From assembly GCA_016191235.1 (NCBI GenBank), contig JACPOZ010000025.1, positions 3,894 through 67,893 of the forward strand: a stretch of 64,000 bases of DNA. Reading direction: 5' to 3'. Both the position numbers and the translations under genes were made by a program. The notes under the pieces are model-generated. The model made no database searches. It was not told the origin of the DNA and worked only from the letters and a program-made list of their open reading frames with translations. The DNA is from Gammaproteobacteria bacterium. GTDB taxonomy: Bacteria; Pseudomonadota; Gammaproteobacteria; Ga0077554; Ga007554. Shown here piece after piece: positions 7,265 to 23,220 of this stretch (its first letter is position 1; every line of letters begins with the position of its first letter).

Positions 7265-7357
7265 CCCGAAAAAAGCGCTAACGCAGAGAGAAAGCCCATT
7301 GGGGTAGACAGGCTTTTTGATGTAAGCTTGTATCCTGAAAAACAAGAGGCACGTCTT

Positions 7358-7522
7358 TAACCCGAATGTTTCATAAATTCGCGTGATGATCGCGCCGGAT
7401 TTTGATTGATAGGGGGATTTTGTGAAGGAGCGCCGTAGTGATTCATACGGCCGACTGAACAAAATTCCCATAGTGATCAAAAGACCAGCGAGGGCGCGCG
7501 AATTTATGAAACATTCGGGTTA
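7358..7522. mobile_element. MITE-like element: 26-bp perfect terminal inverted repeats around a 113-bp core
   Basis: 7358-7383 TAACCCGAATGTTTCATAAATTCGCG is the exact reverse complement of 7497-7522. It lies in the rsgA/UPF0149 intergenic region. TA occurs at both outer ends. Confidence 0.5.
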
Positions 7523-7589
7523 TATCCCGCGCAGGCTATCGGCAGGGCACTGTGTACCGCGGCATCCAACAGGCAAAGAGGACCAAAAC

Positions 7590-8162
7590 ATGAATGTGAA
7601 CGCACCGCTTACGGACGAGGATCTCACGCGCCTCGACGACTTCCTCTCTTCGGACGCCAGCGGCGAGGAAAGCCTCTATCCGGACGAAATCCACGGCCTG
7701 ATGACTGCCATGATCTGTGGGCCGGAGGCGATCGTACCCAGCGAATGGATGCCACTAGTTTTCGCGGGTGATCCTGATTTCGCCGATGCGCGGCAGGCAG
7801 AAGAAATCATGGGCTTGTTGTTGCGCATGCACAACAACATCGCCTCCACCCTCCAGGCCGGGAAAGAATATCAACCGCTGCTGCCGCAGAGCGAGGACAT
7901 TGAAGACGCAGACTTCGTCGCCGAGGGCTGGTGCCGTGGCTTCATGATGGGCATGAGCCTGCGCGGAGAGCAATGGATGGAACACCTTGAGGGCGACCTC
8001 GGCAATATGCTGTTTCCCATCATCGCACTGGCGGGCGAGCCACCCGACTTTTCCAGTGAGGAAGATCCTATCGAACCCATCAGCCCCGAGGAGATGACGG
8101 ACCTTTGCGATATGTTGCCGGACAGCGTAGCGGCGGTTTATGCCTTCTGGCGCACACACTAA
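7590..8162 (+). CDS. UPF0149 (YgfB/YecA N-terminal-like) family protein
   Basis: Sequence ..[24 protein letters not shown].. is typical of UPF0149. ATG at 7590 follows AAGAGGA. The longer ORF-track start (7422) runs through the MITE-like element. Confidence 0.7.
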
Positions 8163-8188
8163 AACCTGATTCAACCCGGACCTTAACC

Positions 8189-9430
8189 ATGACCCAAGAC
8201 ATCAGACAAGCTGCCCTCGACTATCACGAGCACCCCACGCCGGGAAAGCTCGGTATCGCCATTACCAAACCCTGCGACACCCAGCGCGAGCTGGCTCTGG
8301 CCTATACGCCCGGCGTGGCCGAGCCGGTACGCGAGATCGCCAAAGACCCCGAGGCCGCCTACCGCTATACGGCGAAAGGCAACCTGGTGGCGGTGATTAC
8401 CGACGGCACGGCGGTGCTGGGTCTGGGCGATGTCGGGGCGCTGGCGGGCAAACCCGTGATGGAAGGCAAGGCGGTGCTGTTCAAGAAATTCGCCAATATC
8501 GACGTGTTTGATATTGAAGTCACCGCCGGCTCTACACAGGCCTTCATCGACACCGTGGCGCACATCTCGCCAACCTTCGGCGGCATCAATCTGGAAGACA
8601 TCGCCGCACCGCACTGCTTCGAAGTGGAAGAGGCACTCATCGAGCGCCTCGATATTCCGGTATTTCACGACGACCAGCATGGCACCGCCATCATCGTCGC
8701 CGCAGGTCTGCTCAACGCCCTGGAACTGCAAGGCAAGTCCATCGGCGAGGCACGCATCGTATGTCTGGGCGCGGGCGCCGCAGGTATCGCCTCGATGCGC
8801 CTGCTGGTGGCGCTGGGCGCGAAAAAGCACAATATCTTCCTCACTGACCGCCAGGGTGTGATACACAGCGGCCGCACCGACCTCAACACCTACAAGCGCG
8901 AGTTCGCCATCGACACCGGCAGGCGCACCCTGGCCGACGCCATGCAGGATGCGGATGTGCTGATCGGCGTATCCGGCCCCGATCTGGTGACGCCCGAGAT
9001 GCTGGAAGTCATGGCGCCTCGCCCCATCGTTTTCGCCCTCTCCAATCCCGACCCCGAAATCCGCCCCGCCGTGGCCCACGCAGTGCGCAGCGACCTGATC
9101 ATGGCCACCGGGCGCAGCGACTATCCCAATCAGGTCAACAACGTGCTGGGCTTCCCCTTCATCTTCCGCGGCGCTCTGGACGTGCGCGCCACACGCATCA
9201 ACCAGGCCATGCAGATCGCCGCCGTGCATGCCTTGCAGGCGCTGGCCCACGAACCGGTACCCCGCGATGTGCTGGAGGCCTACAAGCTGGACCACCTGGA
9301 ATTCGGCCCCGATTACATCATCCCAAAACCCTTCGACCTGCGGTTGATCGACCGCGTACCTGCGGCCGTGGCGCGGGCGGCGGTGGAGTCGGGGGTGGCG
9401 CGGCAGGACTATCCTGAATACTATCGGTAG
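8189..9430 (+). CDS. maeB: NAD(P)-dependent malic enzyme, short form without PTA domain
   Basis: 413 aa from [21 protein letters not shown]. Contains ..[10 protein letters not shown].., [35 protein letters not shown]. Confidence 0.9.
9407..9416 (+). repeat. Boundary core GACTATCCTG, copy 1 (inside the last codons of maeB)
   Basis: Homology between maeB copy 1 and the downstream maeB fragment ends exactly after this 10-mer. Confidence 0.7.
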
Positions 9431-9465: not shown

Positions 9466-9990
9466 ATGGAATGTTTGCGCCGGCTTGAAGATGACGAGAG
9501 TGGACCAATGAGTGCCGAGAGTTTAACTGACGAAAAAATCGGGGAGCTGCTATCCACGCCGAAACGGGTTACTAACCCTAATAGCAAGTGGCGCGAAAAG
9601 CCGGGGCATAACGAACGAAACTACACCGTTGAAAGCATGGATAGCACCCATCATTTTGTTCTATATGTACGACAAAACCGCAATCTGGATGATGATTTCT
9701 CTTGTGGATTGCGTTGGCTTGCACCGAGCGGCGAAACCATAACGCTGGCACGATATAACGGCAGCAGCCATTCTCATCCCAACCATGTTGAGAAACAAAG
9801 GCTTGGATTTGTATGCCACATCCATAAAGCTACAGAGCGCTACATCCGCGCCGGAAAAAAGATCGAAGGATATGCGGAGGATGCATCACTACGTTATAAC
9901 AGCGTTAAAGGCGCACTGGCTTGTCTTGTTGGCGATTGCGCAATCAAAGGGATTGTGACAGAACCTGACCACCCGGACCTATTCAAATGA
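9466..9990 (+). CDS. Hypothetical protein (accessory module 1, gene A)
   Basis: 174-aa ORF. Its stop overlaps the next start (ATGA at 9987-9990). His-rich patch SHSHPNHVEKQ..CHIHKATE. No family recognised. An alternative start is the Met at 9508. Confidence 0.55.
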   Translation: MECLRRLEDDESGPMSAESLTDEKIGELLSTPKRVTNPNSKWREKPGHNERNYTVESMDSTHHFVLYVRQNRNLDDDFSCGLRWLAPSGETITLARYNGSSHSHPNHVEKQRLGFVCHIHKATERYIRAGKKIEGYAEDASLRYNSVKGALACLVGDCAIKGIVTEPDHPDLFK

Positions 9991-10766
9991 CCATTCCCAC
10001 CGAAGAGCTTAAACAGTTACTTTGTAATGCACTCTGTGCCGAGGTACGTCTTTACGAGAAGGGGGAGAATCTGATTTTTGTTGAAACCCCCTTCTCGTTC
10101 AGTGATGGCGATACCTATTCGATTTACCTCAGACAATTGCCGAGCGGTGGTTTTCGTATTAGCGATTATGGTCATACCATGATGCACCTTAGCTATGAGA
10201 ACGATATAGACAAGTTCCGTGAGGGCACGCGAGGCAAGATTTTTGAACAAATTCTCAACGAAATGGATTTAAGAGAGGAAAATGGCGCCTTTTACACGGA
10301 TACGCCAATGGAAAACATCGGGGCTGCTCTTTTCAGATTCGGTCAGGCGGTAACTAAAATTCATGATCTCACCTTCCTGAACCGATTAAGAACAGAATCT
10401 ACATTTTATGATGATCTCCGGGAATCCCTCCAGCATATCGTGCCGACCGAAAAAGTCACGGAAAATTACGTGTACGAGGCAATGCCCAATGCGCGAGATT
10501 ATCCCATCGATTTCCGTATTGACGGAAAGTATGCCCCGCTGTTTGTTTTCGGTATTCCCGGCAGGGATAAGGCGCGCTTGGCTACGATCATTCTGGAGCA
10601 TCTGTTGCGAGAAAAAGCCGAGTTTGATTGCCTGCTGATCTTCGCTGACCAGAGCGTGATTCCTCGGGGAGATTTGGCCCGATTATCTAATGTTGGCGGG
10701 GAAATGGTGGCATCTCTTGACGCGCAAGATGATTTTCAGCGCAAGGTTCTGAAGCGCGTCGCCTAA
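9987..10766 (+). CDS. Hypothetical protein, resembles DUF1828/DUF1829-type proteins (from memory only)
   Basis: 259-aa ORF translationally coupled to gene A. N-terminal ..LIFVETPFSFSDGDTYSIYL.. resembles DUF1828. This assignment is unverified. Confidence 0.55.
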   Translation: MTIPTEELKQLLCNALCAEVRLYEKGENLIFVETPFSFSDGDTYSIYLRQLPSGGFRISDYGHTMMHLSYENDIDKFREGTRGKIFEQILNEMDLREENGAFYTDTPMENIGAALFRFGQAVTKIHDLTFLNRLRTESTFYDDLRESLQHIVPTEKVTENYVYEAMPNARDYPIDFRIDGKYAPLFVFGIPGRDKARLATIILEHLLREKAEFDCLLIFADQSVIPRGDLARLSNVGGEMVASLDAQDDFQRKVLKRVA

Positions 10767-10830
10767 TCCTGCTATGTCGTGCGCCGCAGTGGAATCGCGG
10801 GGTGGCTCGACGGGATTACCCTGGTTTCTA
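10764..10830 (+). repeat. Degenerate remnant of the maeB 3' end (internal att-like scar)
   Basis: GCAGTGGAATCGCGGGGTGGCTCGACGGGATTACCCTGGTTTCTA aligns to 19262-19306 GCGGTGGAATCGGGGGTGGCGCGGCAGGACTATCCTGGTTTTTA. I estimate about 80-85% identity by eye. Core equivalent is GATTACCCTG at 10814-10823. Confidence 0.65.
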
Positions 10831-10882
10831 TCCGACACGCAGGCTGCCAAAAAACAGCCAGTACATGATTGACAGGACCTCC

Positions 10883-13165
10883 ATGGCAAAACTGACCGAA
10901 CAAGAACAACAGGAGATCATCCGCCATCTGGAAGCGGGTAAACCGCTGCCGGACAAATACCGCTTTCTGCTGTTTGACGACAAGCGCGAAGTCGAGCTGG
11001 TGTGGAACGGCAAAACCGGCGAGGTATGCAATGTGGTGCTGCCGTTTCAGGTGATCGAGCAGGTAGACGAGCCGCGCGCAGAGAAGAATACCTCGTTACA
11101 GTTCGGGCTGTTTGACATGGATGCCCGTGGCCGCCAGCTCAAGGGCTGGACCAATAAACTCATCTGGGGCGACAACAAGCTGATTCTCTCGTCCCTCAAA
11201 AACGGCCCGCTGCGCGAAGAGATCGAAAAACAGGGCGGCATCAAGCTGATCTACATCGACCCGCCCTTTGACGTGGGTGCGGATTTTTCGATGGACATCG
11301 AGATCGGCGGCGACACCTTCACCAAAAGACCCAACGTGCTGGAAGAACTCGCCTACCGCGACACCTGGGGCAAGGGCGCGGATTCCTTCATCGCTATGAT
11401 CTACGAGCGGCTGGTGCTGATGCGGGACTTGCTGGCGGAGGATGGGAGTATTTATGTGCATTGCGATTGGCGGGTGAATAGTCATATTAGACTCGTTGCC
11501 GACGAAGTTTTTGGCTCTTCTTATTTTCGCGGCCATATTGCATGGAAAAGAACGTCGGCACATAGCGACTCTAAATTCTTTCCATATATCCACGATTCAA
11601 TTTTGTTTTATGCGAAATCGGAGCGAACCAGGTTTTCTCGCCAGTACGAACCACTTGATGACAAATATGTGGACTCTAAATATCGGCATAAAAACACGGA
11701 TGGAAGGCTATACAGAAAAGATAACTTGACTGCTACAGGGCTTAGTGGGGGTGGCTATGATTATGAATGGAATGGAGTAAAAAGAACGTGGAGATGTCCA
11801 CCTGAAACAATGGGCAGGCACGAAAAAGAAGGCCGATTGAGTTACACGAAAAATGGTGTCGCAGAATATATAAGATACCTTGATGAGAGTGATGGAAGGA
11901 TTGTTGGTGACTTGTGGACTGATATATCTCCAGTCAATAGCCAAGCATCGGATAGACTAAACTACCCCACCCAAAAACCCGAAGCCCTCATTGAACGCAT
12001 CATCAAAGCATCCAGCAACGAAGGCGACCTGATCGCCGATTTCTTTTGCGGCTCCGGCACCACCGCCGCCGTGGCGGAAAAGCTGGGGCGCAAGTGGATC
12101 ACCAGCGACTTGGGCAAATTCGCCATCCACACCACGCGCAAGCGCCTGATCGGGGTGCAGCGGCACCTGAAGGCCGAAGACAAGCCCTACCGCGCCTTTG
12201 AAATTCTCAACCTGGGCAGGTACGAGCGCCAACATTACATCGGCGTAAACCCCAACCTGCGCGAAGTGGAAAAACAGCAGCAACTGGAGGAGAAGGAAGC
12301 CGCCTTTCTCGACCTCATCCTGCGCGCCTACCGCGCCGAACGGACGACGGGCTTTGCCACTTTCCACGGCAAGAAGGCCGGGCGGCTGGTAACGGTGGGG
12401 CCGGTGAATATGCCCATCACGCGGCTGTTCGTGGAGGAGGTGATTCTGGAGTGCCGCAAAAAGCATATCACCAAGGTGGACATGCTCGGCTTCGAGTTCG
12501 AGATGGGCCTGTTCCCCAATGTGTTGGACGAGGCGAAATCCAAAGGCATCGACATCGCGCCCAAATCCATCCCCGCCGACGTGTTCGACAAACGCGCGGT
12601 GGAAAAGAATCAGGTGGTATTCCATGATGTTTCGTTCATCGAGGTGAAGCCGATTATCAAGAAAAACAGCGTAGCGGTGGAGTTGACGGATTTTTCGGTG
12701 TTCTATTCGCAGGATTCAATTTCCGCAGCCGAAGCGTCGCTCAAGGACAAGGCCAGCAAGATCGTGGTAGACAAAGGCCAGATCGTGAAGGTAAGCAAGG
12801 ACAAGGACGGCATCGTCACCCGCGAGCAACTCACCAAACACTGGACGGACTGGATCGACTACTGGTCGGTGGATTTCGACTTCGAAAACAAACGCGAGAT
12901 AATCCGCGTCAAGAAAATCCCCTCTGGGCAAGGCGTGCTGGAAGGACTTGAGCCGCCACAAATTCAATTCGATGAGTACGAGGAAGTCTGGAGCGGGGAT
13001 TACGTTTTCGAAAATGAATGGCAATCCTTCCGCACCAAAAAAGACCGCTCGCTGGAGCTGATAAGCGTGGCGCAGGAAGTGATGCCGGGGCGGCGCAAGA
13101 TCGCGGTGAAGGTGGTGGATATTTTCGGCAACGACACGATGACGATTGTGGAGGTGCGGGTGTGA
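10883..13165 (+). CDS. mod: Type III-like DNA methyltransferase (Mod), beta-class amino-MTase with long C-terminal extension
   Basis: NKLIWGDNKLILSSL. Motif IV IYIDPPFDV precedes NYPTQKPEALIERII and motif I DFFCGSGTTAAVA. Start is uncertain (10802 GTG, 10865 or 10883 ATG). Confidence 0.85.
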   Translation: MAKLTEQEQQEIIRHLEAGKPLPDKYRFLLFDDKREVELVWNGKTGEVCNVVLPFQVIEQVDEPRAEKNTSLQFGLFDMDARGRQLKGWTNKLIWGDNKLILSSLKNGPLREEIEKQGGIKLIYIDPPFDVGADFSMDIEIGGDTFTKRPNVLEELAYRDTWGKGADSFIAMIYERLVLMRDLLAEDGSIYVHCDWRVNSHIRLVADEVFGSSYFRGHIAWKRTSAHSDSKFFPYIHDSILFYAKSERTRFSRQYEPLDDKYVDSKYRHKNTDGRLYRKDNLTATGLSGGGYDYEWNGVKRTWRCPPETMGRHEKEGRLSYTKNGVAEYIRYLDESDGRIVGDLWTDISPVNSQASDRLNYPTQKPEALIERIIKASSNEGDLIADFFCGSGTTAAVAEKLGRKWITSDLGKFAIHTTRKRLIGVQRHLKAEDKPYRAFEILNLGRYERQHYIGVNPNLREVEKQQQLEEKEAAFLDLILRAYRAERTTGFATFHGKKAGRLVTVGPVNMPITRLFVEEVILECRKKHITKVDMLGFEFEMGLFPNVLDEAKSKGIDIAPKSIPADVFDKRAVEKNQVVFHDVSFIEVKPIIKKNSVAVELTDFSVFYSQDSISAAEASLKDKASKIVVDKGQIVKVSKDKDGIVTREQLTKHWTDWIDYWSVDFDFENKREIIRVKKIPSGQGVLEGLEPPQIQFDEYEEVWSGDYVFENEWQSFRTKKDRSLELISVAQEVMPGRRKIAVKVVDIFGNDTMTIVEVRV

Positions 13166-13518
13166 GAAAGGATTTGGCGATTTCCGTGTTTGAAGTCACC
13201 AGTAATCCGCTGTGCGTCGCTTCTTTCGATGGCCAGAGAATCTATGATCGTTTGGTCGTGGCCTTGCAAGCAGGTCGAAGCGTTACGCTGTCCTTCCGCA
13301 ATGTCACCACCTTAACCACGACATTTTTGGATACGGCAATTGGTCAGTTGTACAGCGTGTTCAGTGAAGAAAAAATACGCTCATCGCTCAAAGTACAAGA
13401 TATGCTGGCCGATGATTTGACTTTATTAAAACGAGTGATAGAAACCGCTAAGCAATACTTTAAGATAATGCGCAGAGACAATTCTGCGGCTTGGGAAAAA
13501 GAGGGGACGGAGGAATGA
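13162..13518 (+). CDS. STAS-like (DUF4325-like) small protein
   Basis: GTG 13162 overlaps the mod stop (GTGA), with GAGGTG 5-11 nt upstream. Sequence ..FDGQRIYDRLVVALQAGRSVTLSFRNVTTLTTTFLDTAIGQLY.. resembles DUF4325 (from memory, unverified). Confidence 0.6.
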   Translation: MRKDLAISVFEVTSNPLCVASFDGQRIYDRLVVALQAGRSVTLSFRNVTTLTTTFLDTAIGQLYSVFSEEKIRSSLKVQDMLADDLTLLKRVIETAKQYFKIMRRDNSAAWEKEGTEE

Positions 13519-14900
13519 AAATACAAATTAAAAATCTTGGTGCATTGCAACAAGCCGAGTTCTCTCTTGGTGATATGACCATTTTATGTGGCGGCAATAA
13601 TACAGGTAAGACCTATGCCACTTATGCGCTGTTTGGTTTTTTGTCTGTCTGGCGTGAGAACTTCTCCATTCAGATACCGGAGCAAAAGATTAATCAGCTT
13701 CTTGCAGAAGGTGTTGTTCATATGGATGTGGCTGAATACAGCGATAAGGCTTCGGATATTCTCGCCTCTGGATGTGCTGCGTACACGAAGCAGTTGCCAG
13801 TAATTTTTGCTGCGCCTGCGGATCGGTTTAAGGAGAGCCAGTTTGTCGTGACTGTTGATGCCCAGGACATTCCCTCTTCTGGGGGATATGGGCGTCGCAT
13901 GGGGGCGGCTAATACCGAGCTGTTCTCCATCACCAAAGCGGAGGCCAGCAGTGATCTGGTGATCACTTTGCTGGTTGATAGAGAGCAGGTCAGAATACCA
14001 CTGGATGTCATTACAAGAGTTATTAGTGATTCGCTGAAGGACATTCTTTTCGGCCACCTCTTTCCCAATCCTTTCATCGCCAGCGCAGAAAGAACCGGTG
14101 CGGCTATTTTTCGCAAAGATTTGAATTTCGCTCGCAATCGTTTGCTAGAGGAAATGACTAAAACGGACAAGAATGTCGACCCCATGGACTTGCTATTTAA
14201 GGTCTATCAAGACTATGCCCTACCCGTAAAAGCTAATGTAGATTTTACTCGGCAGCTTGAAACTCTAGCTAAGAAGAGCAGCTTTATTGCCCAGCAACAT
14301 CCAGAGGTATTAGCTGATTTTGCTGACATCATCGGCGGTGAGTACAAAGTGACAACAAATGATGAGCTTTATTACATTCCGAAAGGTAAAAGCGTCAAAC
14401 TGACCATGGACGAAAGCTCTAGCGCGGTGCGTTCACTGTTGGATATTGGCTTCTACCTGAAGCACATGGCCAAGCCGGGTGACTTGCTTATGGTGGACGA
14501 ACCGGAGTTGAACCTTCACCCTGAAAACCAGCGGCGGGTCGCCCGGCTGTTAGCCCGCCTGGTTAATCTCGGCATTAAGGTTTTTATCACGACTCATAGT
14601 GATTACATCGTCAAAGAGTTAAATACGCTCATTATGCTCAGTCACGACAAGCCGCCGTTGAGAAGGCTTGCCGAGAGAGAGGGGTATAAACCTGAAGAGC
14701 TTATAACTTCTGAACGAGTGAGGGTTTACATTGCCGAAAAAGCATCTATCAAAGTGGATGGCGGAAGAAATAAAGTCAATCGACACACGCTGACACCCGC
14801 CGACATAGACCCTGAACTGGGCATTGAGGCTCGCAGTTTCGATACGACAATTGAAACAATGAACCGGATTCAGGAAGAAATTGTCTGGGGCGGGGAATGA
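13515..14900 (+). CDS. ABC/SMC-type ATPase (AAA_15/AAA_21-like)
   Basis: ATG overlaps the upstream stop (ATGA) and GGAGGA lies immediately upstream. Walker A GGNNTGKT, signature-like SSSAVRSLL, Walker B LLMVDEPELNLHP, H-loop ITTHSD. Confidence 0.85.
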   Translation: MKIQIKNLGALQQAEFSLGDMTILCGGNNTGKTYATYALFGFLSVWRENFSIQIPEQKINQLLAEGVVHMDVAEYSDKASDILASGCAAYTKQLPVIFAAPADRFKESQFVVTVDAQDIPSSGGYGRRMGAANTELFSITKAEASSDLVITLLVDREQVRIPLDVITRVISDSLKDILFGHLFPNPFIASAERTGAAIFRKDLNFARNRLLEEMTKTDKNVDPMDLLFKVYQDYALPVKANVDFTRQLETLAKKSSFIAQQHPEVLADFADIIGGEYKVTTNDELYYIPKGKSVKLTMDESSSAVRSLLDIGFYLKHMAKPGDLLMVDEPELNLHPENQRRVARLLARLVNLGIKVFITTHSDYIVKELNTLIMLSHDKPPLRRLAEREGYKPEELITSERVRVYIAEKASIKVDGGRNKVNRHTLTPADIDPELGIEARSFDTTIETMNRIQEEIVWGGE

Positions 14901-15457
14901 CCATGCCTGATCTCGCCATTCTTCACCAGATGATTAAAGATGGAGCCAAGGTGCCATTGCTCGAAAAACACGGCAAAAAATCAGTCGTGCTCTCTGAACC
15001 CCAGCATCCTGACTCCTCGGTAACGATTGCGGGCATGCCGGATAACACTATCGTTATCAAGGCGGATGCTTTCAAGTCTCCCGACACGGTGTTTGCTGGC
15101 TTGCAGGGTGAATGCAAGCGCGCTGATTTTGTCATTGTGGCTGACACTGGCAAAAAGAAAAGCATCGTCTGCATCGAGATGAAGGCAAAAAAAGCTTCTG
15201 AGAAGGAAATCATTCAGCAACTCTCTGGAGCGGAATGTTTTATCGTTTATTGCCGAGAGATTGGTAAGTCCTTTTGGAAGCAGCAGGATTTTCTCGCTGA
15301 TTACTCGTTTCGTTTCATCAGTATTGGTCATACCAGCATTCCCAAGCGCCGGACGCGCATTGATCGGTCTGCAGACGTTCATGATCGTCCTGATCGGATG
15401 TTGAAGATTTCCTCTCCACATCGTTTGCAATTCAATCAGCTGGCCGGAGCAAGCTGA
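14897..15457 (+). CDS. Small hypothetical protein with candidate PD-(D/E)xK nuclease motif
   Basis: 186 aa, with both ends overlapping its neighbours (ATGA at the start, TGATG at the end). Motif ..RADFVIVADTGKKKSIVCIEMKAKK.. fits D..(D)..ExK spacing. Confidence 0.5.
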   Translation: MTMPDLAILHQMIKDGAKVPLLEKHGKKSVVLSEPQHPDSSVTIAGMPDNTIVIKADAFKSPDTVFAGLQGECKRADFVIVADTGKKKSIVCIEMKAKKASEKEIIQQLSGAECFIVYCREIGKSFWKQQDFLADYSFRFISIGHTSIPKRRTRIDRSADVHDRPDRMLKISSPHRLQFNQLAGAS

Positions 15458-18144
15458 TGGCTCTGCACAAGGATTTTCCCTCATCCCCCCATGCCATCCT
15501 CGATCCCTCCATCCGCTGGTTTCCGGCGGATGAGGCCTTGCGCACATCGAGCTTTGAGAAGCTACTGCCGCCGCTGGTGCCGGAACTGCGCAAACAGGTG
15601 AAGACGTGGCGCGATAGCGGCTACGCCAAGGCGACGGAGACTAGCCGCAGCCTGCTCAACTGGTGGTTTAATACGCCACACCTGCTGCCCAAGCTTAATG
15701 GCGGAATGGTTGAGTTTCAGTATTACTTCGCCCAGCGCGAGGCGCTGGAGACCATCATCTACCTGTATGACGTGGTCGGGGTAAAAGATAAATATGACCT
15801 GATGCGCTTCGACCATTCCGGTGCGGTATCCACCGGCATGTTCGACGAAAGCTGGCGGCGCTTTGTGGTAAAGATGGCCACCGGCGCGGGCAAGACCAAG
15901 GTGATGAGTCTGGCGCTGGCGTGGAGCTACTTTCACAAGCTCTATGAGCCGGAGTCGGAGCTGGCGCGCAACTTTCTGGTGATTACGCCCAACATCATCG
16001 TGCTGGATCGTATTTACAAGGATTTTCAGGGGTTGCGTATCTTTTTTGATGACCCGGTGCTGCCGGATAATGGCGTGGATGGGCGCAACTGGCGGGATGA
16101 TTTCCAGCTGGCGTTGCATGTACAGGATGAGGTGAGAATTACTCATCCTGTCGGCAACATCTTTCTGACCAACATCCATCGGGTCTATTCAGGCGAAGAC
16201 ATTCCGCCTTCGCCCGATGATGACAACACTATGGATTATTTTCTCGGAAAACGGCCCACCGGTGCGACGACCGATTCCAAGGTGGATCTGGGCATGATCG
16301 TACGTGACATCGACGAGCTGATGGTGTTGAACGACGAGGCTCACCATATTCACGATAGTAAGCTGGCGTGGTTTAAGTCTATAGAAGATATTCACAACCG
16401 CCTCAAGCAGAAAGGCGATGCTTTGAGTTTACAGCTGGATGTAACAGCGACCCCCAAGCACAACAACGGCGCAATTTTTGTTCAGACCATTGCCGACTAC
16501 CCGTTGGTGGAAGCGATTTCGCAGAACGTGGTGAAGCACCCAGTGTTGCCCGATGCCGCCAGCCGCGCCAAGCTGGCGGAACGGCAAAGCGCCAAATACA
16601 CCGAGAAATACGCCGATTACATCAACCTCGGCGTGGTGGAGTGGCGCAAGGCGTATGCCGAACATGAGAGGCTGGGCAAGAAGGGCATCCTGTTTGTGAT
16701 GACCGACGACACCCGAAATTGTGATGATGTGGTGGATTATCTCGAAGGTAACTATCCCGATCTGAAAGGCGCCGTGCTGGTGATTCATACCAAGAATAAC
16801 GGTGAGATTTCCGAGGCATCCTCAGGCAAGAATAAAGAAGAGCTGGAGCGGCTGCGCAAACAGGCCAATGAGATCGACAGCATGGAGAGCCCCTATAAGG
16901 CCATCGTTTCCGTGTTGATGTTGAAAGAGGGCTGGGATGTGCGCAATGTCACCACCATCGTCGGGCTGCGTGCCTATTCGGCAAAGAGCAATATCCTGCC
17001 CGAGCAGACACTGGGGCGCGGCTTGCGCAAGATGTACCCCGGCGATGTGGAGGAGTATGTCAGCGTGGTGGGTACCGACGCCTTCATGGAGTTTGTCGAG
17101 TCCATTCAAGCTGAAGGTGTGGTGCTGGAACGCAAACCGATGGGTGAGGGAACCGGGCCAAAAACACCACTGATCGTTGAGATCGACAGGGACAACGAGA
17201 AGAAAGATCTTGATGCGCTGGACATAGAAATTCCGGTGATGACACCGCGCGTCTACCGGGAATACAGGAATCTGTCCGATCTTGAGGTGCGCACTCTGGA
17301 TGGTTCCAGGGTGACTTATCAGCAGTTCAGCGAAGAGCAGCAGCGGGAGATTGTCTTTAAGGACATTACCACCGGCGAGGTCACGCATAGCACTTTTCTG
17401 GATACGGCGGGCATTGCCGATTATCGCAGTGTGATCGGTTATTTTACACAGGCCATCATGAAAGATCTGCGTCTGATCAGTGGTTACGATGTGCTTTACG
17501 GCAAGGTCAAGGCATTTGTGCAGGAGCAGTTGTTCGACCAGCAGGTGGTGCTGGATGATCCCAACACCTTGCGGAATCTTTCAGAGCTGGCTGCCACCAA
17601 GACGCTGATCGAAGCATTCAAGAAAGGCATCAACGCACTTACCGTGCGGGATAAGGGCGATGCCGAGATTCGGGACTACATCAAACTGCGGCAAACCAGA
17701 CCATTTGTGGCGAAGGATCAGGGCTACCTGATCCCGAAGAAAAGCATCTTCAACAAGATCATTGGTGATAGCCATTTTGAGTTGCGATTTGCCCGCTTTC
17801 TGGATGATTGCGACGATGTTGTCTCCTACGCCAAAAACTATCTGGCGGTGCATTTCAAGCTCGATTATGTGAACGCCGATGGTAATATTTCAAATTACTA
17901 CCCAGACTTTCTGGTGAAACTGTCGAACAAGGAAATCGTTGTTGTTGAGACCAAAGGCCAGGAGGATCTAGATGTGCCGCTGAAAATGGCGCGGTTGCGA
18001 CAGTGGTGTGAGGACATCAGCCGGATTCAGTTGGAAGTAAAGTACGATTTTGTGTATGTGGATGAAGAGAGTTTTGAGCAATACAGGCCCACGTTATTCA
18101 GGCAGTTGATTGGCAGCTTCCAGGAGTACCAACAGAAAACGTGA
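15457..18144 (+). CDS. res: Type III restriction enzyme Res subunit (SF2 helicase plus C-terminal endonuclease)
   Basis: Walker A MATGAGKTKV, motif II LNDEAHH, later helicase motifs (MLKEGWDV, QTLGRGLR). C-terminal PD..ExK YYPDFLV..VVVETKG. Confidence 0.9.
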   Translation: MALHKDFPSSPHAILDPSIRWFPADEALRTSSFEKLLPPLVPELRKQVKTWRDSGYAKATETSRSLLNWWFNTPHLLPKLNGGMVEFQYYFAQREALETIIYLYDVVGVKDKYDLMRFDHSGAVSTGMFDESWRRFVVKMATGAGKTKVMSLALAWSYFHKLYEPESELARNFLVITPNIIVLDRIYKDFQGLRIFFDDPVLPDNGVDGRNWRDDFQLALHVQDEVRITHPVGNIFLTNIHRVYSGEDIPPSPDDDNTMDYFLGKRPTGATTDSKVDLGMIVRDIDELMVLNDEAHHIHDSKLAWFKSIEDIHNRLKQKGDALSLQLDVTATPKHNNGAIFVQTIADYPLVEAISQNVVKHPVLPDAASRAKLAERQSAKYTEKYADYINLGVVEWRKAYAEHERLGKKGILFVMTDDTRNCDDVVDYLEGNYPDLKGAVLVIHTKNNGEISEASSGKNKEELERLRKQANEIDSMESPYKAIVSVLMLKEGWDVRNVTTIVGLRAYSAKSNILPEQTLGRGLRKMYPGDVEEYVSVVGTDAFMEFVESIQAEGVVLERKPMGEGTGPKTPLIVEIDRDNEKKDLDALDIEIPVMTPRVYREYRNLSDLEVRTLDGSRVTYQQFSEEQQREIVFKDITTGEVTHSTFLDTAGIADYRSVIGYFTQAIMKDLRLISGYDVLYGKVKAFVQEQLFDQQVVLDDPNTLRNLSELAATKTLIEAFKKGINALTVRDKGDAEIRDYIKLRQTRPFVAKDQGYLIPKKSIFNKIIGDSHFELRFARFLDDCDDVVSYAKNYLAVHFKLDYVNADGNISNYYPDFLVKLSNKEIVVVETKGQEDLDVPLKMARLRQWCEDISRIQLEVKYDFVYVDEESFEQYRPTLFRQLIGSFQEYQQKT

Positions 18145-18212: not shown

Positions 18213-18536
18213 TTACTTCGGCAAACCACCACCCTCTCCGCCAATAGCAATCATCCCGGACAACTCCGATGTTTGCGCCTTCAGAAACGCTAACAATCGA
18301 GCCGGGTAGCCAGGGAAAGCCGCGTCTTTAACAGACGGCCGGGCAGCAAGCGCGGAACGCCATGCCCGCACTTTTGGGGTGCAATCATATACGCCGAAGT
18401 AGCGGAAAATCGGGCCGAATACCGCGTCGACCATCGAGAAGCGCTCACCGGCAAAGTAAGGCCCCACCTTGAGTTGCTGCTCGATAGTTTCGAACTTCGC
18501 CTGGAGGTCAGCGTGTTTGATCTCGTGCGCCTTGGC
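18213..18536 (-). pseudogene. 3' fragment of a glutathione S-transferase gene (divergent second allele)
   Basis: Translates to ..[73 protein letters not shown].., matching the C-terminal third of the GST at 20942-21637. It has an in-frame roughly 9-aa gap. It has no 5' part and abuts the maeB fragment. Confidence 0.8.
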
Positions 18537-19307
18537 ATACCGGTGTTCCACGACGACCAGCATGGCACCGCCATCATCGTCGCCGCAGGTCTGCTCAACG
18601 CCCTGGAACTGCAAGGCAAGTCCATCGGCGAGGCGCGCATCGTATGCCTGGGCGCGGGCGCTGCGGGTATCGCCTCGATGCGCCTGCTGGTGGCGCTGGG
18701 CGCGAAAAAGCACAATATCTTCCTCACTGACCGCCAGGATGTGATACACAGCGGCCGCACCGACCTCAACACCTACAAGCGCGAGTTCGCCATCGACACC
18801 GGCAGGCGCACCCTGGCCGACGCCATGCAGGATGCGGATGTGCTGATCGGCGTATCCGGCCCCGATCTGGTAACGCCCGAGATGCTGGAAGTCATGGCGC
18901 CCCGCCCCATCGTTTTCGCCCTGTCCAATCCCGACCCCGAAATCCGCCCCGCCGTGGCTCACGCGGTGCGTAGCGACCTGATCATGGCCACCGGGCGGAG
19001 CGATTACCCTAACCAGGTCAACAACGTGCTGGGTTTCCCGTTCATCTTCCGCGGCGCCCTGGACGTGCGCGCCACACGCATCAACCAGGCCATGCAGATC
19101 GCCGCCGTGCATGCCTTGCAGGCGCTGGCCCACGAACCGGTGCCCCGCGATGTGCTGGAGGCCTACAAGCTAGACCACCTGGAATTCGGCCCCGATTACA
19201 TCATCCCAAAACCCTTCGACCTGCGTCTGATCGACCGCGTACCAGCCGCTGTGGCGCGGGCTGCGGTGGAATCGGGGGTGGCGCGGCAGGACTATCCTGG
19301 TTTTTAG
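18537..19307 (+). pseudogene. 3' fragment of the malic-enzyme gene (second allele, promoterless and 5'-truncated)
   Basis: Collinear with 8655-9416. By eye I count about 30 substitutions over about 760 bp, and all but one (G to D) are synonymous. It ends ..QDYPGF* where copy 1 ends ..QDYPEYYR*. Confidence 0.85.
19290..19299 (+). repeat. Boundary core GACTATCCTG, copy at the left end of the Fic module
   Basis: Exact 10-mer at the end of the maeB fragment. Confidence 0.6.
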
Positions 19308-19448: not shown

Positions 19449-20798
19449 TTAGAGCTTATTTTCTATTAGCCTAGCCTTTAGATCTGGTGGGGAGACAAAT
19501 ACGAAGGAAGCTCCATATTTCCTCCTCCTCAACAAATTTAATTGATCAGACATTTTCAACAAATCTGTTCTAGCGGTTTGATAACTAACTGCATGCGAAG
19601 CCTGATGCTCTTGTATGCGATAAATAGCATTTGGATGCTCCAGGGCATGCTTCAATAATGACAATTGCCTATGATTCAACTGGCCCTTGGCCTTCGAGTT
19701 ATCAAGCAACTTCTCAGCTTCTTCAATTTCTTGTGATTTTATTTCTAGATATTCATGTAATGCTTTAACCCCCTTCTTAATTATGTCCATTTGATGAATA
19801 AGAAAATAGGTTAAGTCATTACCATCAGTTTCAGTATGTAAATAGGCTTTGCCATATTGGACAGGGTTCTGTTTAATGATTCTGGAGATAGAAATAAATT
19901 CCATCAGCCAGTAGCCTTGCTTTGCCATTGCCCAGTAAAACAATGCCCTGGCCGTTCTCCCATTGCCGTCAACAAAAGGGTGATCGTAGCCGATCATAAA
20001 ATGCAAGGTTATTGCCTTTATAACTGGATGAATAAACTCTTTTTCTTCCAAGTCGTTAGCAAATCTGCATATTTTTTCAATACGCCCAGGAAGAGTATCC
20101 GCATCTGGTGGTGCATGAAGAACAACTGATTCACTACTGTCCACGACCTGGATATCATCCGTATTTTCTCTAAAATGTCCGGCCTTGGAAGGATCATCAA
20201 GAGTATTTTTGGTGAGAATTTCATGGAGGTGCTTAATTAGGGATGGCGTTAGTTCGTCGTCCTTATAATCTCTTATAGCCCTCATAGCCTTATAATTGTT
20301 AAAAATCATCTGCTCACTATGATCTTTAGGCTGCCGCCCTTGCCTTAGCATCTCCTTGGCAACATTTCTTGTCGTTGACGCCCCCTCAAGCTGGCTAGAG
20401 CTTATAGATTCCTCAATAAGGGAGCTGACGAGGTAAGTGTCTCTAGTATGAGGATTCGTGATAGGCCGATCCATCGTAATACTTCCAGCTGCATTCTGAT
20501 CCAGCCAATGCAACTCTCTTTGCAAAGGGTCTGGGACACAAAAATTAAAGGGACTCCCATTTTTATCTGTGAGGGATAATTTTTTAAATGCCTTTTGCCG
20601 TGCCAGCTTGGTAGCAAACCAGTATTCTTCGCTGGACAATCCTTCAGGAGGCGAAAGATGTTTTAGTTTTTCCCAATGAAGATATCTGCCTTTGCCGTCT
20701 GTAAGTCCAATATTAGAAGTCAGAATTTGCGCCAGCTTTTTCTGATCAAGCTTCACGAGCATTTCAGAAATAGATGGTGGTGATTCAGGTATTTTCAC
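19449..20798 (-). CDS. Fic family protein (class II, with N-terminal inhibitory motif and C-terminal wHTH-like tail)
   Basis: Canonical Fic motif HPFVDGNGRTARAL. SxxxEG inhibitory-helix motif (SSSQLEGAST) upstream. Very AT-rich compared with the flanks. The ORF-track start is a GTG. Confidence 0.9.
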   Translation of the reverse strand: MKIPESPPSISEMLVKLDQKKLAQILTSNIGLTDGKGRYLHWEKLKHLSPPEGLSSEEYWFATKLARQKAFKKLSLTDKNGSPFNFCVPDPLQRELHWLDQNAAGSITMDRPITNPHTRDTYLVSSLIEESISSSQLEGASTTRNVAKEMLRQGRQPKDHSEQMIFNNYKAMRAIRDYKDDELTPSLIKHLHEILTKNTLDDPSKAGHFRENTDDIQVVDSSESVVLHAPPDADTLPGRIEKICRFANDLEEKEFIHPVIKAITLHFMIGYDHPFVDGNGRTARALFYWAMAKQGYWLMEFISISRIIKQNPVQYGKAYLHTETDGNDLTYFLIHQMDIIKKGVKALHEYLEIKSQEIEEAEKLLDNSKAKGQLNHRQLSLLKHALEHPNAIYRIQEHQASHAVSYQTARTDLLKMSDQLNLLRRRKYGASFVFVSPPDLKARLIENKL

Positions 20799-21747: not shown

Positions 21748-22221
21748 ATGCGAAATCCCAAATCAAAATCAACGGTCTCAACCACTACGTGGGCACTGTT
21801 TTTAACAACCCATGCCGTGCTGCTTGAGAAAATCGAGGCCACGCTCAAGGTGGCGGAGCTACCGCCCCTCGAATGGTATGACGTGCTTTGGGCGCTTGAG
21901 CGCGCCCCTCAGCACCGTTTGCGAATGCACGAGCTCGCCCATTCGGTCGTCCTCTCCAGGAGCAACCTGACGCGATTAGTTGACCGTCTTGAGGCTGCGG
22001 GACTTGTGGAACGGCAGTCCGCAGCGGATGACAAGCGGGGTGCTTACGGCGTGCTCACGTCGGCAGGGTTGGCGATGAGAGAAAAGATGTGGCCGGCCTA
22101 TCGGGATTGCATCGTGGATCTCTTCAACCAGCACCTCTCCAAGGACGAGCAGGGCATAATGAATGGGGCGTTGCGCCGGATATTGGATGCGGCAAGAGAT
22201 AGTGCTGACGAAGGGATCTAA
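21748..22221 (+). CDS. MarR family transcriptional regulator
   Basis: 157 aa. wHTH region ..LRMHELAHSVVLSRSNLTRLVDRLEAAGLVERQ..DDKRG... Confidence 0.85.
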   Translation: MRNPKSKSTVSTTTWALFLTTHAVLLEKIEATLKVAELPPLEWYDVLWALERAPQHRLRMHELAHSVVLSRSNLTRLVDRLEAAGLVERQSAADDKRGAYGVLTSAGLAMREKMWPAYRDCIVDLFNQHLSKDEQGIMNGALRRILDAARDSADEGI

Positions 22222-22290
22222 GCCTCCGAAGCCACATCTTTACAATCCCACGTTCCCGCCTCATGATTAAGGTCACGCAGGTCCATCTTC

Positions 22291-23220
22291 ATGGGAAAAA
22301 AGGATATGGAGAAGATCACTATCGTCGGCCCCGGCCGGGTGGGCGAATCAGCCGCGCAGATCCTCGCCAAGGAGGAGCTGTGCCGGGAACTGGTGTTGCT
22401 GGGCCGTCAGGAAGGCGTGGCGCGGGGCATCGCTCTGGACATCCAGGAATCCGCGCCGCTGTTTGGTTTCGATACGCGAGTGACGGGCGGGGCAGACCCG
22501 GCCCTGATGGCAGATTCCGATCTGGTGATCATCGCCGCCGGTGCTCCCCGCAAGCCGGGCATGTCGCGCGCCGATCTGCGCGATGCCAACCTGCCCGTCA
22601 TCACCATGATAGTCGATCAAGTTATGCGCTACGCTCCCCAAGCCATGGTGCTGATTGTAAGCAATCCGGTGGATGTGCTCACTTATCACGCCTGGCGCCA
22701 TACCGGCTGGGCGCGGCAGCGGGTATTCGGCCTGTCGGGCGTGCTCGACAGCGCGCGCATGGCGAGCTTCATCGCTTTGGAAACCGGGTTCTCGGTTAGG
22801 GACATCACGGCGATGGTGATCGGCGGGCATGGCGACACGATGGTGCCGCTGCCGCGCTACACCTGCATTAATGGCATTCCCATCACCCACTTCCTCTCTC
22901 CTGAAGCCATCGCGCGTCTTGGTGAGCACACCCGCCAGGGCGGCGCCGAGATCCTGGCGCTTAAAGAGAACAGCAGCGCCTACGACTCCCCGGCGGCAGC
23001 CATCGCCACTATGGTAGATGCGTTGGTTCACAGGCGACGGCGCGTGCTGCCGTGCGTTGCCATATTGGATGGCGAGTATAGCCAGCACGACATCGCCTTC
23101 GGCGTGCCCGCTATCCTTGGCGGAACGGGTCTGGAAAAGGTGGTGGAACTGCCGCTGACCGAGGAAGAACAAGAGGCGGTGCGGCGTTCGGCTGAGCAGG
23201 TGCGGGCGAGTCTGGGGTGA
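22291..23220 (+). CDS. mdh: Malate dehydrogenase (LDH-like MDH family)
   Basis: ITIVGPGRVG Rossmann motif, AGAPRKPGMSRADL, SNPVD, IGGHGDTMVP. Start may be 22291 or 22306. Confidence 0.9.
   Translation: MGKKDMEKITIVGPGRVGESAAQILAKEELCRELVLLGRQEGVARGIALDIQESAPLFGFDTRVTGGADPALMADSDLVIIAAGAPRKPGMSRADLRDANLPVITMIVDQVMRYAPQAMVLIVSNPVDVLTYHAWRHTGWARQRVFGLSGVLDSARMASFIALETGFSVRDITAMVIGGHGDTMVPLPRYTCINGIPITHFLSPEAIARLGEHTRQGGAEILALKENSSAYDSPAAAIATMVDALVHRRRRVLPCVAILDGEYSQHDIAFGVPAILGGTGLEKVVELPLTEEEQEAVRRSAEQVRASLG

Follow-up and report, generated by a model that had tools for sequence, protein, structure and literature searches.

How can one slot between conserved chromosomal genes come to hold two alternative sets of genes, one behind the other? 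The contents of defence hotspots are normally thought to replace each other through recombination in the flanks. The alleles of such a hotspot are usually alternatives that are swapped by way of this flanking homology, but in the window (the whole stretch of DNA that was analysed, 64,000 nucleotides long) two of them are stacked.

A malic enzyme gene, maeB, is followed by a defence island, by a 3' fragment of a glutathione S-transferase gene (GST') and by a second 3' end of maeB ('maeB). Only then come a Fic-domain gene and an intact GST gene. Relatives show the ancestral layout to be maeB-Fic-GST-MarR-Mdh, to which the window adds 9,883 extra bases: the island, then GST', then 'maeB.

The explanation that is favoured here, with moderate confidence, is a single illegitimate join between the DNA of two close lineages with alternative alleles of the slot, anchored by homology on the opposite side. 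This resembles homology-facilitated illegitimate recombination (HFIR), a mechanism that is already known but rarely documented, and that adds DNA instead of swapping it. HFIR and its scars are described in PMC5361080 and in the papers that it cites, de Vries & Wackernagel 2002, Prudhomme et al. 2002 and Meier & Wackernagel 2003. It also occurs in E. coli conjugation (PMC3240628).

Contents of the locus

Table 1 Features of the maeB-Mdh locus, in window coordinates.
Feature	Position	Strand	Evidence or remark
Divergent tract, window versus organism A (X2) and organism B (X3)	~3445..9388		5-9% inside, 0-0.3% outside
Intact maeB, NAD-malic enzyme, 413 aa	8189..9430	+	Pfam malic + Malic_M; translation
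Copy 1 of duplicated maeB 3' segment, inside intact gene	8654..9416	+	
Island module 1, DUF6978 + DUF1828 genes	9466..10766	+	DUF1828 matches PADLOC candidate PDC-M24B
Older 49-nt maeB 3'-end remnant, native ..DYPGF-type tail	10783..10831	+	39/48 identical to 19260-19307
Island module 2, type III restriction-modification with nested genes	10802..18144	+	Pfam, PADLOC
mod gene of type III R-M	to 13165	+	PADLOC MTase_III 3.7e-109
Nested STAS gene	13018-13518	+	Pfam
Nested PDC-M47/PD-T4-4 ATPase-nuclease pair	13491-15457	+	PADLOC PDC-M47A 4e-237, PDC-M47B 4.5e-82
res gene of type III R-M	15457-18144	+	PADLOC REase_III 5.5e-21
GST', 3' fragment (107 codons) of GST gene, non-resident allele lineage	18213..18536	-	
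Junction patch	18523..18536		14 nt, 10-11 matches between GST and maeB parents
'maeB, malic enzyme 3' fragment, native tail and native downstream hairpin	18537..19307	+	
Fic-domain gene, SoFic-like, resident slot content	19449..20798	-	Pfam Fic 3.5e-20; PADLOC SoFic 6.8e-40
Intact resident GST, 231 aa	20942..21637	-	Pfam GST_N/GST_C
Right flank, conserved: MarR + malate dehydrogenase, then beta-CASP, citrate synthase	21748..23220	+	

The gene pair of the first island module is PDC-M24-like and is also found downstream of maeB in the relatives L082-L086, at about 92% identity. The last four codons of the intact maeB (EYYR) come from the island, and L082 has the same type of tail. The 49-nt remnant of an older maeB end reaches a local score of 48, whereas 300 background windows gave at most 28, and is absent in L082. 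The C-terminus of Res has a TnsA-like nuclease fold that scores under the Pfam cut-off.

A variable slot

In the relative L089 the genes are ordered GGDEF-RNaseT-amidohydrolase-rsgA-UPF0149-maeB-Fic-GST-MarR-Mdh-bCASP-citrate synthase. The Fic gene has the same position in L087, L089, L090 and L091, and GST orthologues adjoin MarR-Mdh in L089-L092. Relatives differ in what they have from maeB to Mdh: SoFic-GST-MarR, a two-component system with a hydrolase and ADH, or near-empty deletion forms. The maeB tails of L096 and L087 differ as well. As in other defence hotspots, the flanks are conserved core genes, the content between them differs among relatives (L089, L087, L093, L096, L082) and the cargo matches PADLOC models of defence genes.

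An earlier note on this DNA, made from the sequence alone, had read the locus as a tandem of two alleles of a single hotspot. Other strains support this. Allele 2 (maeB-Fic-GST-MarR-Mdh) is found alone in L089, L090 and L091, and in the same-species strains X53/54 and X56, which lack the island and whose Fic shows 0 differences. Of allele 1, the left end (maeB with a YPE..YR tail, then DUF6978-DUF1828) is found alone in L082.

No genome among the matches listed, the JGI contigs and the runs has the layout of the proposed partner, with a full-length GST of the GST' type behind res. The runs with words from the res end and GST' (X5, X40, X41, X42) gave only fragments, short and of low depth, of the organism that bears the junction, or maeB motifs that are conserved in other organisms. 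Among the matches listed in a scan of genome contigs with maeB, no relative exceeded 77% amino-acid identity, which is too distant for comparisons between strains. The 231-aa GST protein had no exact match on record.

The junction

At the join, between 18536 and 18537, a 324-nt GST 3' fragment (18213-18536, minus strand) meets a 763-nt maeB 3' fragment (18537-19299, plus strand). The earlier note had placed this abutment correctly to the base. The sequence reads ..GATCTCGTGCGCCTTGGC|ATACCGGTG..., and GAGCGCCT is present in both the intact GST and the intact maeB.

That the join is at a microhomology, as was also claimed, is borne out by comparison with all other places where the two genes could be aligned. 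The final 14 nt 5' of the join match maeB at 10 positions when the window's own alleles are used, a level that is attained by a fraction of 4.9e-4 among all pairs of GST and maeB positions (P about 5e-4). Set against an L089-like maeB allele (CGAC|ATACC), the patch has 11/14 matches. The join is 4 nt beyond an exact octamer, so it is at the edge of the interrupted patch and outside the octamer itself. HFIR leaves a novel joint at a short microhomology (about 3-12 nt) between otherwise unrelated sequences, and at 10/14, or 11/14 for the L089-like allele, this is such a joint.

The junction is real and inherited, and no assembly artefact. Logan contigs span it with 0 differences in X1 (18289-18578), the groundwater metagenome in which the window is found, in X2, here called organism A (18395-18632), and in X4 (18511-18656). 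X6 has a 255-nt contig with 2 differences, and X7 contains an organism-A-like strain. Depth in X2 is 16.7 for the island, 16.9 for the junction contig and 15-19.5 for the flanks, which means that the junction has the depth of single-copy sequence. In X1 depth is a uniform 8-12. Logan contigs are k=31 assemblies, and their graph requires an overlap of 30 nt whereas the common patch is at most 10 nt, so the junction is not a false join. Stretches that are identical between the copies run up to 132 nt and were phased via the deposited assembly; the tandem order across 10 kb is based on the deposited contig and the even depth. An exact search of JGI metagenome contigs for the 24-nt junction gave 0 matches.

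Two lineages at one join

The segment 18523-19299 aligns to 8640-9416 without gaps, over 777 nt at 95.5% and with an offset of 9,883. Between the first base that is specific to maeB (8654/18537) and the last homologous position (9416/19299) the copies differ by 31 substitutions, 30 of them synonymous. The count by eye in the earlier note, about 30 over about 760 bp with all but one synonymous, was thus close. The dN/dS and codon-position check that it had suggested gives dS 0.171, dN 0.0018 and omega 0.01, with a chance of 5e-17 for at least 30/31 synonymous changes: the divergence is almost purely synonymous, and not random. The sole nonsynonymous difference is G->D at 8856/18739, a missense change in 'maeB that is private to the window.

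Homology between the copies ends four codons short of their stops, ...DYPEYYR* in the full gene versus ...DYPGF* in the fragment. The native sequence downstream of 'maeB is common to L087, L089 and L093. Fragment-type states start 3 nt past the join, and the 'maeB allele is matched without difference over 167 nt (18839-19005) in X56, where Fic is present and the island absent. In organism A and X7, 'maeB has a 48-nt deletion (18648-18695) between CTGGGCGCG repeats. A functional truncated malic enzyme (ORF 18474-19307) was considered and rejected, given that the GxGxxG region is deleted in organism A and X7 and that the start sits in antisense GST sequence.

GST' differs from the resident GST at 22 of 300 ungapped columns (7.3%), and also by a 27-nt in-frame gap and a diverged tail. 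Its dS of 0.11 is similar to the 0.17 of maeB. At 14 of these 22 sites outgroups agree with GST', and at six of those 14 GST' has the state of L089/L091 and the resident GST that of L092. The non-resident, outgroup-like states persist to within 12 nt of the join. The DNA of two lineages does therefore meet at the junction, as had been claimed, with GST' as the best witness, and not maeB. In HFIR, too, the two sides of the joint come from different genomes. Here the GST' sites and the presence of the 'maeB allele in island-free strains both say so, with the proviso that a later exchange could mimic part of this pattern.

The in-frame gap in GST' had been noticed earlier as part of its divergence. 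It exists, but it is a deletion after 18398 that is private to the window's lineage: contigs from X2 and X3 are identical to the window over 18289-18398 and then carry ATCAGCAATGGCATCGAACACGTC, so the gap is ruled out as a feature of the allele. GST' has 7 derived missense changes and 'maeB has 1, though the 'maeB fragment is 2.5 times longer.

Later exchange of the full-length maeB

Sister strains have an identical junction and a different full-length maeB allele. The divergent tract of Table 1, roughly 6 kb, includes the full-length maeB, and its right end is the maeB/island boundary, where maeB homology ends at 9416. Between the window and organism A there are 0 differences in 1-728, sparse ones to 2671 and dense ones from 3445, for example 71/1224 in 7526-8749 and 23/571 in 8846-9416. 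To the right of the tract, 9389-11813 has 0 differences. Pieces from X3 have 0-1 differences in 1065-2983 and 20-24 per ~320 nt in 5040-6930. Because the flanks are nearly identical and yet the tract that holds the full-length maeB differs by 5-9%, the junction must already have been present when at least one allelic replacement took place. From these comparisons, the tract could be the donor tract of the anchor side, or a later, separate exchange.

In organism A and X7, the final 571 nt of both maeB copies form one contig at double depth (28.3 vs ~16), within which Logan bubble popping might mask a few SNPs. The full copy of organism A is a third allele, which differs from the fragment at 15 of the 192 sites in 8654-8845. 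The earlier note had said that identical copies in sister strains would count against its reading. This holds in part: for the distal 571 nt, where the copies cannot be told apart, and not for the first 192 nt.

The full-copy allele of organisms A and B (8776-9175) is found in the island-free X53, attached to the Fic-side tail. Since this allele occurs in the island-free X53 and the fragment's allele in the island-free X56, the A-type full copy is probably a secondary replacement. An X1 contig, 9313-13496, ties the window's full-copy alleles (9343-9388) to the island with 0 differences there.

With the intact maeB exchanged later, the 4% by which it differs from the fragment may have arisen after the join. 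The earlier argument that this divergence favours import over in-situ duplication therefore does not carry: on its own it cannot discriminate. A more general caution follows. Later allelic exchange of an intact copy can rewrite its synonymous divergence from a pseudogene stump, so that such divergence alone neither dates nor explains the joining. The alleles at this locus are mosaics, which weakens lineage labels.

Proposed origin and alternatives

The interval from maeB to MarR/Mdh is a variable slot in this clade. Two close lineages, about 4-7% apart at these genes, would have held different contents in it: the ancestral maeB-SoFic-GST in one, and maeB-[DUF6978/DUF1828 + type III R-M island]-GST in the other. 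When genes were transferred between them, one side would have been settled by homologous recombination. On the opposite side, a broken GST end (codon ~125) would have been ligated to the maeB of the other lineage (codon ~156) at the 14-nt interrupted microhomology. Given that this join was upstream of the maeB end rather than within GST, nothing would have been swapped, and the island with its own complete maeB and a GST stump would have been stacked ahead of maeB stump-SoFic-GST. Both stumps are dead and decaying independently, with the 27-nt deletion and G->D in the window and the 48-nt deletion in organism A. Subsequent homologous exchange has replaced the intact-maeB tract in at least one daughter lineage. 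The sequences themselves show the structure, its occurrence in several samples, the allele lineages, the patch and the later exchange; that everything happened in one step, which way the DNA moved and how it entered the cell are inferred.

Both sides are allele-pure up to the join, and two-step models need exchanges that end exactly there, which supports a direct join of two lineages. The 49-nt remnant at 10783-10831 shows that the maeB end had undergone such a displacement earlier. Against a single step count the lack of a genome with the partner layout in the searches above, and also that ~300 nt of 93% GST homology were available, and that a double-crossover swap should far outnumber an illegitimate join; selection or chance must offset this rarity. 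The missense excess of GST' fits a single step only if the changes arose in the donor lineage.

It is possible, though unlikely, that the segment from maeB-3' to GST-3' was duplicated in tandem in situ (unequally, by microhomology, between sister chromosomes), after which homologous recombination swapped a cargo. The intermediate would be maeB-Fic-GST'|'maeB-Fic-GST, or the same with the island, in which the flanking maeB and GST' guide the replacement. A tandem duplication would have precisely this topology, with head-to-tail copies at an offset of 9,883 nt and a single novel joint at 18536|18537, and spontaneous duplications typically have microhomology joins. Transformation can itself produce tandem duplications (PMC3784515). 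Homologous exchange is evidently frequent here, as seen from the 6-kb tract, a swapped nested cassette and a patch in mod, and the copies of organism A are indistinguishable over the distal 571 nt. However, a simple duplication has copies that are alike at birth, and here the cargoes are unrelated, maeB has a dS of 0.17 and GST' is from another lineage. Adding the swap requires two rare events, an unstable intermediate and an exchange with its endpoint very near the junction, at most ~12 nt away if in GST' and 3 nt if in 'maeB. Among the strains compared, none had the same cargo in both copies.

Distinctly less probable is an insertion of the Campbell type. In this case a 'maeB-island-GST' circle, the reciprocal product of a deletion at a donor-type locus, closed at the microhomology and entered a Fic-type chromosome by a single crossover in the 763-nt maeB homology. 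The inserted unit is indeed 'maeB-island-GST' circularly permuted, and it has just one novel joint. The X2 graph, which has two in-branches and two out-branches at the shared maeB 3' segment, fits a circle plus a chromosome equally well. But the 9.9 kb contain no replication or transfer functions according to Pfam and PADLOC, and a non-replicating circle must form and integrate in one cell, or survive transfer as double-stranded DNA. Both copies should also be donor/recipient chimeras with one switch point, and none is visible in the window. An autonomous circle was rejected: it would lack replication functions, and island and junction have the same depth as the flanks in X2.

Two further readings turn on GACTATCCTG, which occurs at 9407 in the maeB coding sequence and at 18173 in the diverged GST 3' flank. 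The maeB 3' end could be a dedicated accretion site, at which an unrecognised, trans-acting site-specific system adds defence cassettes serially without a carried recombinase, and of which the stumps and the GST'|'maeB joint would be side products; this is very improbable. Slightly more doubtful still is a site-specific cassette insertion by an unrecognised trans-acting recombinase at this core of the maeB 3' end, with the junction as a by-product. The core is found at 9407, 18173 and 19290, and as GACTATC at 20923, all of them module boundaries, and the older 49-nt remnant sits between two island modules. Yet at 9407/19290 the core simply encodes D-Y-P of maeB, and the GATAGTC by the GST stop belongs to the diverged homologous GST 3' flank. 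The GST'|'maeB joint is 760 nt from any core and unrelated to it. Pfam and PADLOC found no integrase, transposase or relaxase domains in ORFs of at least 150 aa in 8-23 kb, and no other recombinase was found in 8-22 kb.

The possibility that a metagenome bin of mixed strains gave a chimeric contig, with the tandem absent from any single cell, can be all but dismissed: although the 81,971-bp contig is metagenome-derived, X1 does have strain heterogeneity (the main Logan contig differs from the window by 14 SNPs in mod) and 31-mers cannot phase inter-copy stretches identical over up to 132 nt, the junction is present in reads without mismatch and at single-copy depth in three or more independent samples, one of which is a single-organism run by its label, the links from full-copy alleles to the island and from fragment alleles to Fic are each on single contigs (X1 contig; L081), X1 depth is even at 8-12, and X2 and X7 give the same order piecewise. 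This also answers the concern about such an artefact that the earlier note had raised.

Relation to known systems

The favoured single join would share with HFIR a homologous anchor on one flank, beside which foreign DNA from a related donor is inserted. The opposite flank is joined, as in HFIR, at a microhomology that is short, GC-rich and interrupted. What is known of HFIR comes from crosses in the laboratory, with marker selection and inserts of 1-3 kb, whereas the case here is deduced from natural genomes and added ~10 kb. Also unlike HFIR, the usable homology of the incoming end (GST) was left unused.

Arrays of T6SS effector-immunity genes and Rhs/CDI systems (Kirchberger et al. 2017, PMC5361080) have modules that are anchored in a conserved upstream gene. 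There too the old 3' end and its cargo are pushed downstream, which leaves orphan 3' stumps in series, and HFIR is the proposed mechanism (PMC5361080). The comparable maeB stumps of the window number two, of 49 nt and 763 nt. However, the anchor in the window is a housekeeping gene, malic enzyme, with phage-defence cargo, and not a polymorphic toxin. The window also has a stump of the gene on the opposite flank (GST), which is what makes it look like a tandem duplication.

Merodiploidy triggered by transformation (Johnston et al. 2013, PMC3784515) likewise yields a tandem duplication, there from uptake of related DNA and pairing of sister chromosomes. It uses a long pre-existing repeat (IS) and produces identical copies of 100-900 kb, as opposed to a 10-14-nt patch and a 9.9-kb unit with differing cargoes. 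Compared with the usual defence hotspots, the window has datable stumps of both flank genes between its alleles, and no mobile-element genes.

If the single join is correct, it retained both SoFic and the type III R-M island with its nested ATPase-nuclease pair. The locus would then be one concrete, recombinase-free route by which defence islands grow. Joints of the HFIR type are rarely documented in nature, and this one is common to groundwater and drinking-water strains, outside selected laboratory crosses. The stumps of the flank genes put the events in order: the 49-nt maeB stump came first, then the 763-nt stump, then the lineage-specific deletions.

Layout of the locus

The features of the locus are listed in the table. 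GST' and 'maeB are 3' fragments that abut at 18536|18537. The genes between the intact maeB and GST' are called the island, and the intact GST is the resident one.

Features of the locus, in window coordinates
Feature	Position	Strand	Remark
rsgA, UPF0149			left flank of maeB
maeB	8189-9430		intact, 413 aa
DUF6978 and DUF1828 genes	9466-10766		
type III mod	to 13165		
STAS-like gene, then ABC-type ATPase and small nuclease	13018-15457		
res	15457-18144		
GST' (GST 3' fragment)	18213-18536	-	
'maeB (maeB 3' fragment)	18537-19307	+	
Fic gene	19449-20798	-	
GST	20942-21637	-	intact
MarR, malate dehydrogenase (Mdh), beta-CASP nuclease, citrate synthase			right flank, in this order

PADLOC names the type III restriction-modification genes (MTase_III 3.7e-109, REase_III 5.5e-21) and, also in the island, PDC-M47A (4e-237) and PDC-M47B (4.5e-82), which are relatives of PD-T4-4. 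The DUF1828 protein matches PDC-M24B, and the Fic protein matches SoFic (6.8e-40). By these names both cargoes, island and Fic, consist of defence-type genes.

Background layouts come from relatives at 88-92% identity. In the related locus L089 (GCA_040183005.1) the order is GGDEF regulator, RNase T, amidohydrolase, rsgA, UPF0149, maeB (412 aa), Fic, GST, MarR, Mdh, beta-CASP, citrate synthase. This is the right-hand unit of the window, but with a complete maeB. GST-Fic is also present in L090 and L091. L087 has maeB-Fic and then a MarR 3' stump (L087 1-330), while in L093 maeB is followed by some 200 nt of its native downstream region, then by a MarR 3' stump and Mdh (L093 6700-7210). L096 holds a two-component system, a hydrolase and an alcohol dehydrogenase. 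In L082-L086, a maeB with a YPE(H/Y)YR tail is followed by the same DUF6978-DUF1828 pair and then by unrelated genes. Two metagenomes (X53/54 and X56) contain same-species strains with 0 differences in Fic and no island. Taken together, these layouts and island-free strains show that the maeB-to-Mdh interval is a variable slot, with maeB-Fic-GST as its ancestral content. Adding 9,883 bases (island, GST', 'maeB) to that layout gives the window, and the earlier note was accurate in calling this two alleles of one hotspot in tandem.

A scan for maeB in genome contigs gave only distant relatives among the matches listed. The partner layout, in which res adjoins a complete GST, was not found in the four runs with res-end/GST' words (X5, X40, X41, X42). 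L093 and L087 are deletion forms of the slot; L093 lost Fic, GST and the MarR 5' half.

The junction

The window is part of an 81,971-bp contig in an assembly derived from a metagenome, and the earlier note asked for an assembly artefact to be excluded. Three samples have independent k=31 contigs that run through the joint with no mismatch: X1, the groundwater metagenome containing the window (18289-18578); X2, a run whose label names a single organism (organism A; 18395-18632, at depth 16.9 against 15-19.5 in single-copy flanks); and X4, a biofilm metagenome. With a shared patch of at most 10 nt, a false join cannot arise in a de Bruijn graph. The junction is therefore no assembly artefact. 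The exact junction sequence was not found in JGI metagenome contigs.

The tandem order over 10 kb is probable, with two single-contig links. One X1 contig joins the full-copy maeB alleles to the island (9313-13496, 0 differences in 9313-9416), and one contig (L081, 19196-21036) joins the fragment alleles to Fic.

The joint reads GATCTCGTGCGCCTTGGC|ATACCGGTG, and GAGCGCCT is present in both intact genes. Using the window's own alleles, the 14 nt 5' of the joint match maeB at 10 positions, a level reached by only 4.9e-4 of all GST x maeB position pairs. With the L089 maeB allele (CGAC|ATACC) the match is 11/14. This patch is interrupted, and the joint sits at its 3' edge, 4 nt past the exact octamer. 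A join at a microhomology, as first proposed, is borne out by this.

Two chimeric open frames span the junction, 18213-19133 (-) and 18474-19307 (+), of 306 and 277 aa. Each consists of a real stump plus the antisense of the other stump, and gene callers will probably report them as proteins.

Origin and age of the two stumps

Positions 18523-19299 correspond to 8640-9416 over 777 gapless nt, at 95.5% identity and an offset of 9,883. From the first maeB-specific base to the homology end (8654-9416) there are 31 substitutions, 30 synonymous and one G->D, close to the roughly 30 in 760 bp, all but one synonymous, that had been counted by eye. This gives dS 0.171, dN 0.0018 and omega 0.01; the synonymous excess has a chance of 5e-17. 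Of the 300 ungapped columns shared by GST' and the resident GST, 22 differ; in addition, 27 nt are missing from GST' and its tail has diverged.

At 14 of these 22 sites the outgroups side with GST', so GST' did not arise by decay of the resident gene. At 6 of the 14, GST' has the state of L089/L091 and the resident GST that of L092. Outgroup-like states in GST' persist to within 12 nt of the joint. Eight changes are derived in GST', and because 7 are missense and only 1 silent, its omega is raised (0.4-0.57, against 0.15-0.23 among intact orthologues). This indicates either some decay or a source lineage under relaxed selection.

'maeB keeps the native ..DYPGF* tail and, downstream, the native hairpin, as in L087, L089 and L093, and its allele is unchanged over 167 nt in island-free X56. 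Each stump is nearest to the window's own intact copy: the maeB copies differ at 31/763 sites, against 57-70 to other species, and GST' has 22 differences to the resident GST, against 36-50 to other GSTs. The two source lineages were thus close, at about the species boundary.

Only the window lineage has the 27-nt gap in GST'; contigs of organism A and of organism B (run X3), identical over 18289-18398, continue with the 'missing' letters. Organism A and the A-like strain of a drinking-water metagenome (X7) alone have lost 48 nt between CTGGGCGCG repeats, and with them the GxGxxG loop. The fragment's sole missense change (18739) is private to the window. Since all of these are lineage-private, the stumps were still essentially intact when the window and organism A lineages split. 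Dated by decay, the joining appears recent. A dS of 0.11-0.17 would then be too large to have arisen after the join, and was probably imported by alleles that evolved elsewhere as working genes. The earlier claim that the copies evolved apart as functional genes stands to this extent. The divergence between the maeB copies alone is not a clean witness, because the intact maeB was later exchanged.

Later exchange of the intact maeB

Other strains are read here solely as differences from the window in short contigs, from which minor variants may drop out. Organism A has 0 differences in 1-728, sparse ones up to about 2671, 0 in 9389-11813 and in 18395-18632, 2 in 19270-21036 and 1 in 21149-23000. 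From about 3445 to 9388 it diverges by 5-9% (71/1224 in 7526-8749, 23/571 in 8846-9416), and organism B has the same pattern. The tract ends at most 28 nt from 9416, where homology between the island-type and Fic-type alleles stops. A heteroduplex with a partner of the other allele type must end there. Divergence limited to this tract implies that the intact maeB was replaced by homologous exchange at least once since the junction formed.

The full copy of organism A is a third allele. Identity of the copies in sister strains had been held to speak against the original reading, and this is half the case: the two copies differ at 15/192 sites in 8654-8845, but collapse from 8846 onward into a single contig of twofold depth (28.3; in X7 likewise, 14.2 against about 7). 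The A/B full-copy allele (8776-9175) also occurs in island-free X53, where it runs into the Fic-side tail, and in this small sample the 3' allele of the window's full copy turned up only alongside the island. That mildly favours the window as the older state. X53 also has a window-like stretch at 7863-8040, which makes the alleles at this locus mosaics.

Mechanism

The proposal is that one illegitimate join linked DNA of two lineages, with homologous recombination at the other side (homology-facilitated illegitimate recombination, HFIR). Either lineage could be the recipient, with the anchor left of maeB or right of GST. HFIR would account for the single novel joint and the microhomology, for dS being similar on the two stumps, for both cargoes having been kept, and for each stump carrying its own allele states up to the joint.

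A two-step route, in-place duplication and then a cargo swap via flanking homology, is possible, but it requires an unstable intermediate and exchanges that stop within 3-12 nt of the joint. Integration of a circular intermediate by one crossover yields the identical map, yet the circle lacks any means of transfer, and the chimeric copies it predicts were not seen. It is unlikely that a site-specific system acting at the GACTATCCTG core made the joint, which lies 760 nt from any copy of that core, at a locus without a recombinase gene.

HFIR-type joining has been described in laboratory crosses of Acinetobacter, Streptococcus, Pseudomonas and E. coli (PMC3240628; references in PMC5361080). Transformation-driven tandem duplication is also known, and requires long repeats (PMC3784515). 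The locus would contribute a natural example from a defence hotspot, well documented, in which both flank genes leave stumps, several environmental samples share the junction, and later exchange and decay are readable.

At 10783-10831, between the DUF1828 gene and mod, where the two island modules meet, lies an older remnant of the maeB end, 49 nt long and with the native ..DYPGF tail (39/48 identical to 19260-19307; score 48 against a background maximum of 28). It is absent in L082. It shows that the maeB end had been displaced at this locus before. The same displacement logic has been proposed for T6SS and Rhs orphan arrays (PMC5361080).

Minor observations

Just 3' of res, at 18166-18182, GCGAGAAGACTATCCTG resembles the maeB end GCGGCAGGACTATCCTG (14/17); this may be a third, very short remnant, or chance.

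Short low-depth pieces identical to the window organism occur in X5, X6 and X40-X42, which are unrelated single-organism runs and air and drinking-water metagenomes. The pieces suggest that it is widespread as a water-borne background organism.

Within mod, 12451-12655 has 14 SNPs in 205 nt between the window and the main Logan contig of its own sample; a minor contig equals the window. The cluster is strain heterogeneity and falls in the probable target-recognition part of Mod.

In organism A, 1,771 unrelated letters replace the STAS gene and the PDC-M47 ATPase and nuclease genes, which form a nested cassette (13167-15457) between mod and res. Beside it, res is 1.4% diverged (40/2,851 nt) and mod 0.2%. 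This nested slot is itself undergoing exchange.

A 165-bp element with terminal inverted repeats lies at 7358-7522. In organism A this site is empty (joint 7345->7526, with 17 other letters), while in that run the element's words have a depth of about 240x, compared with 16x in the flanks. The element is therefore multi-copy, recently mobile and MITE-like.
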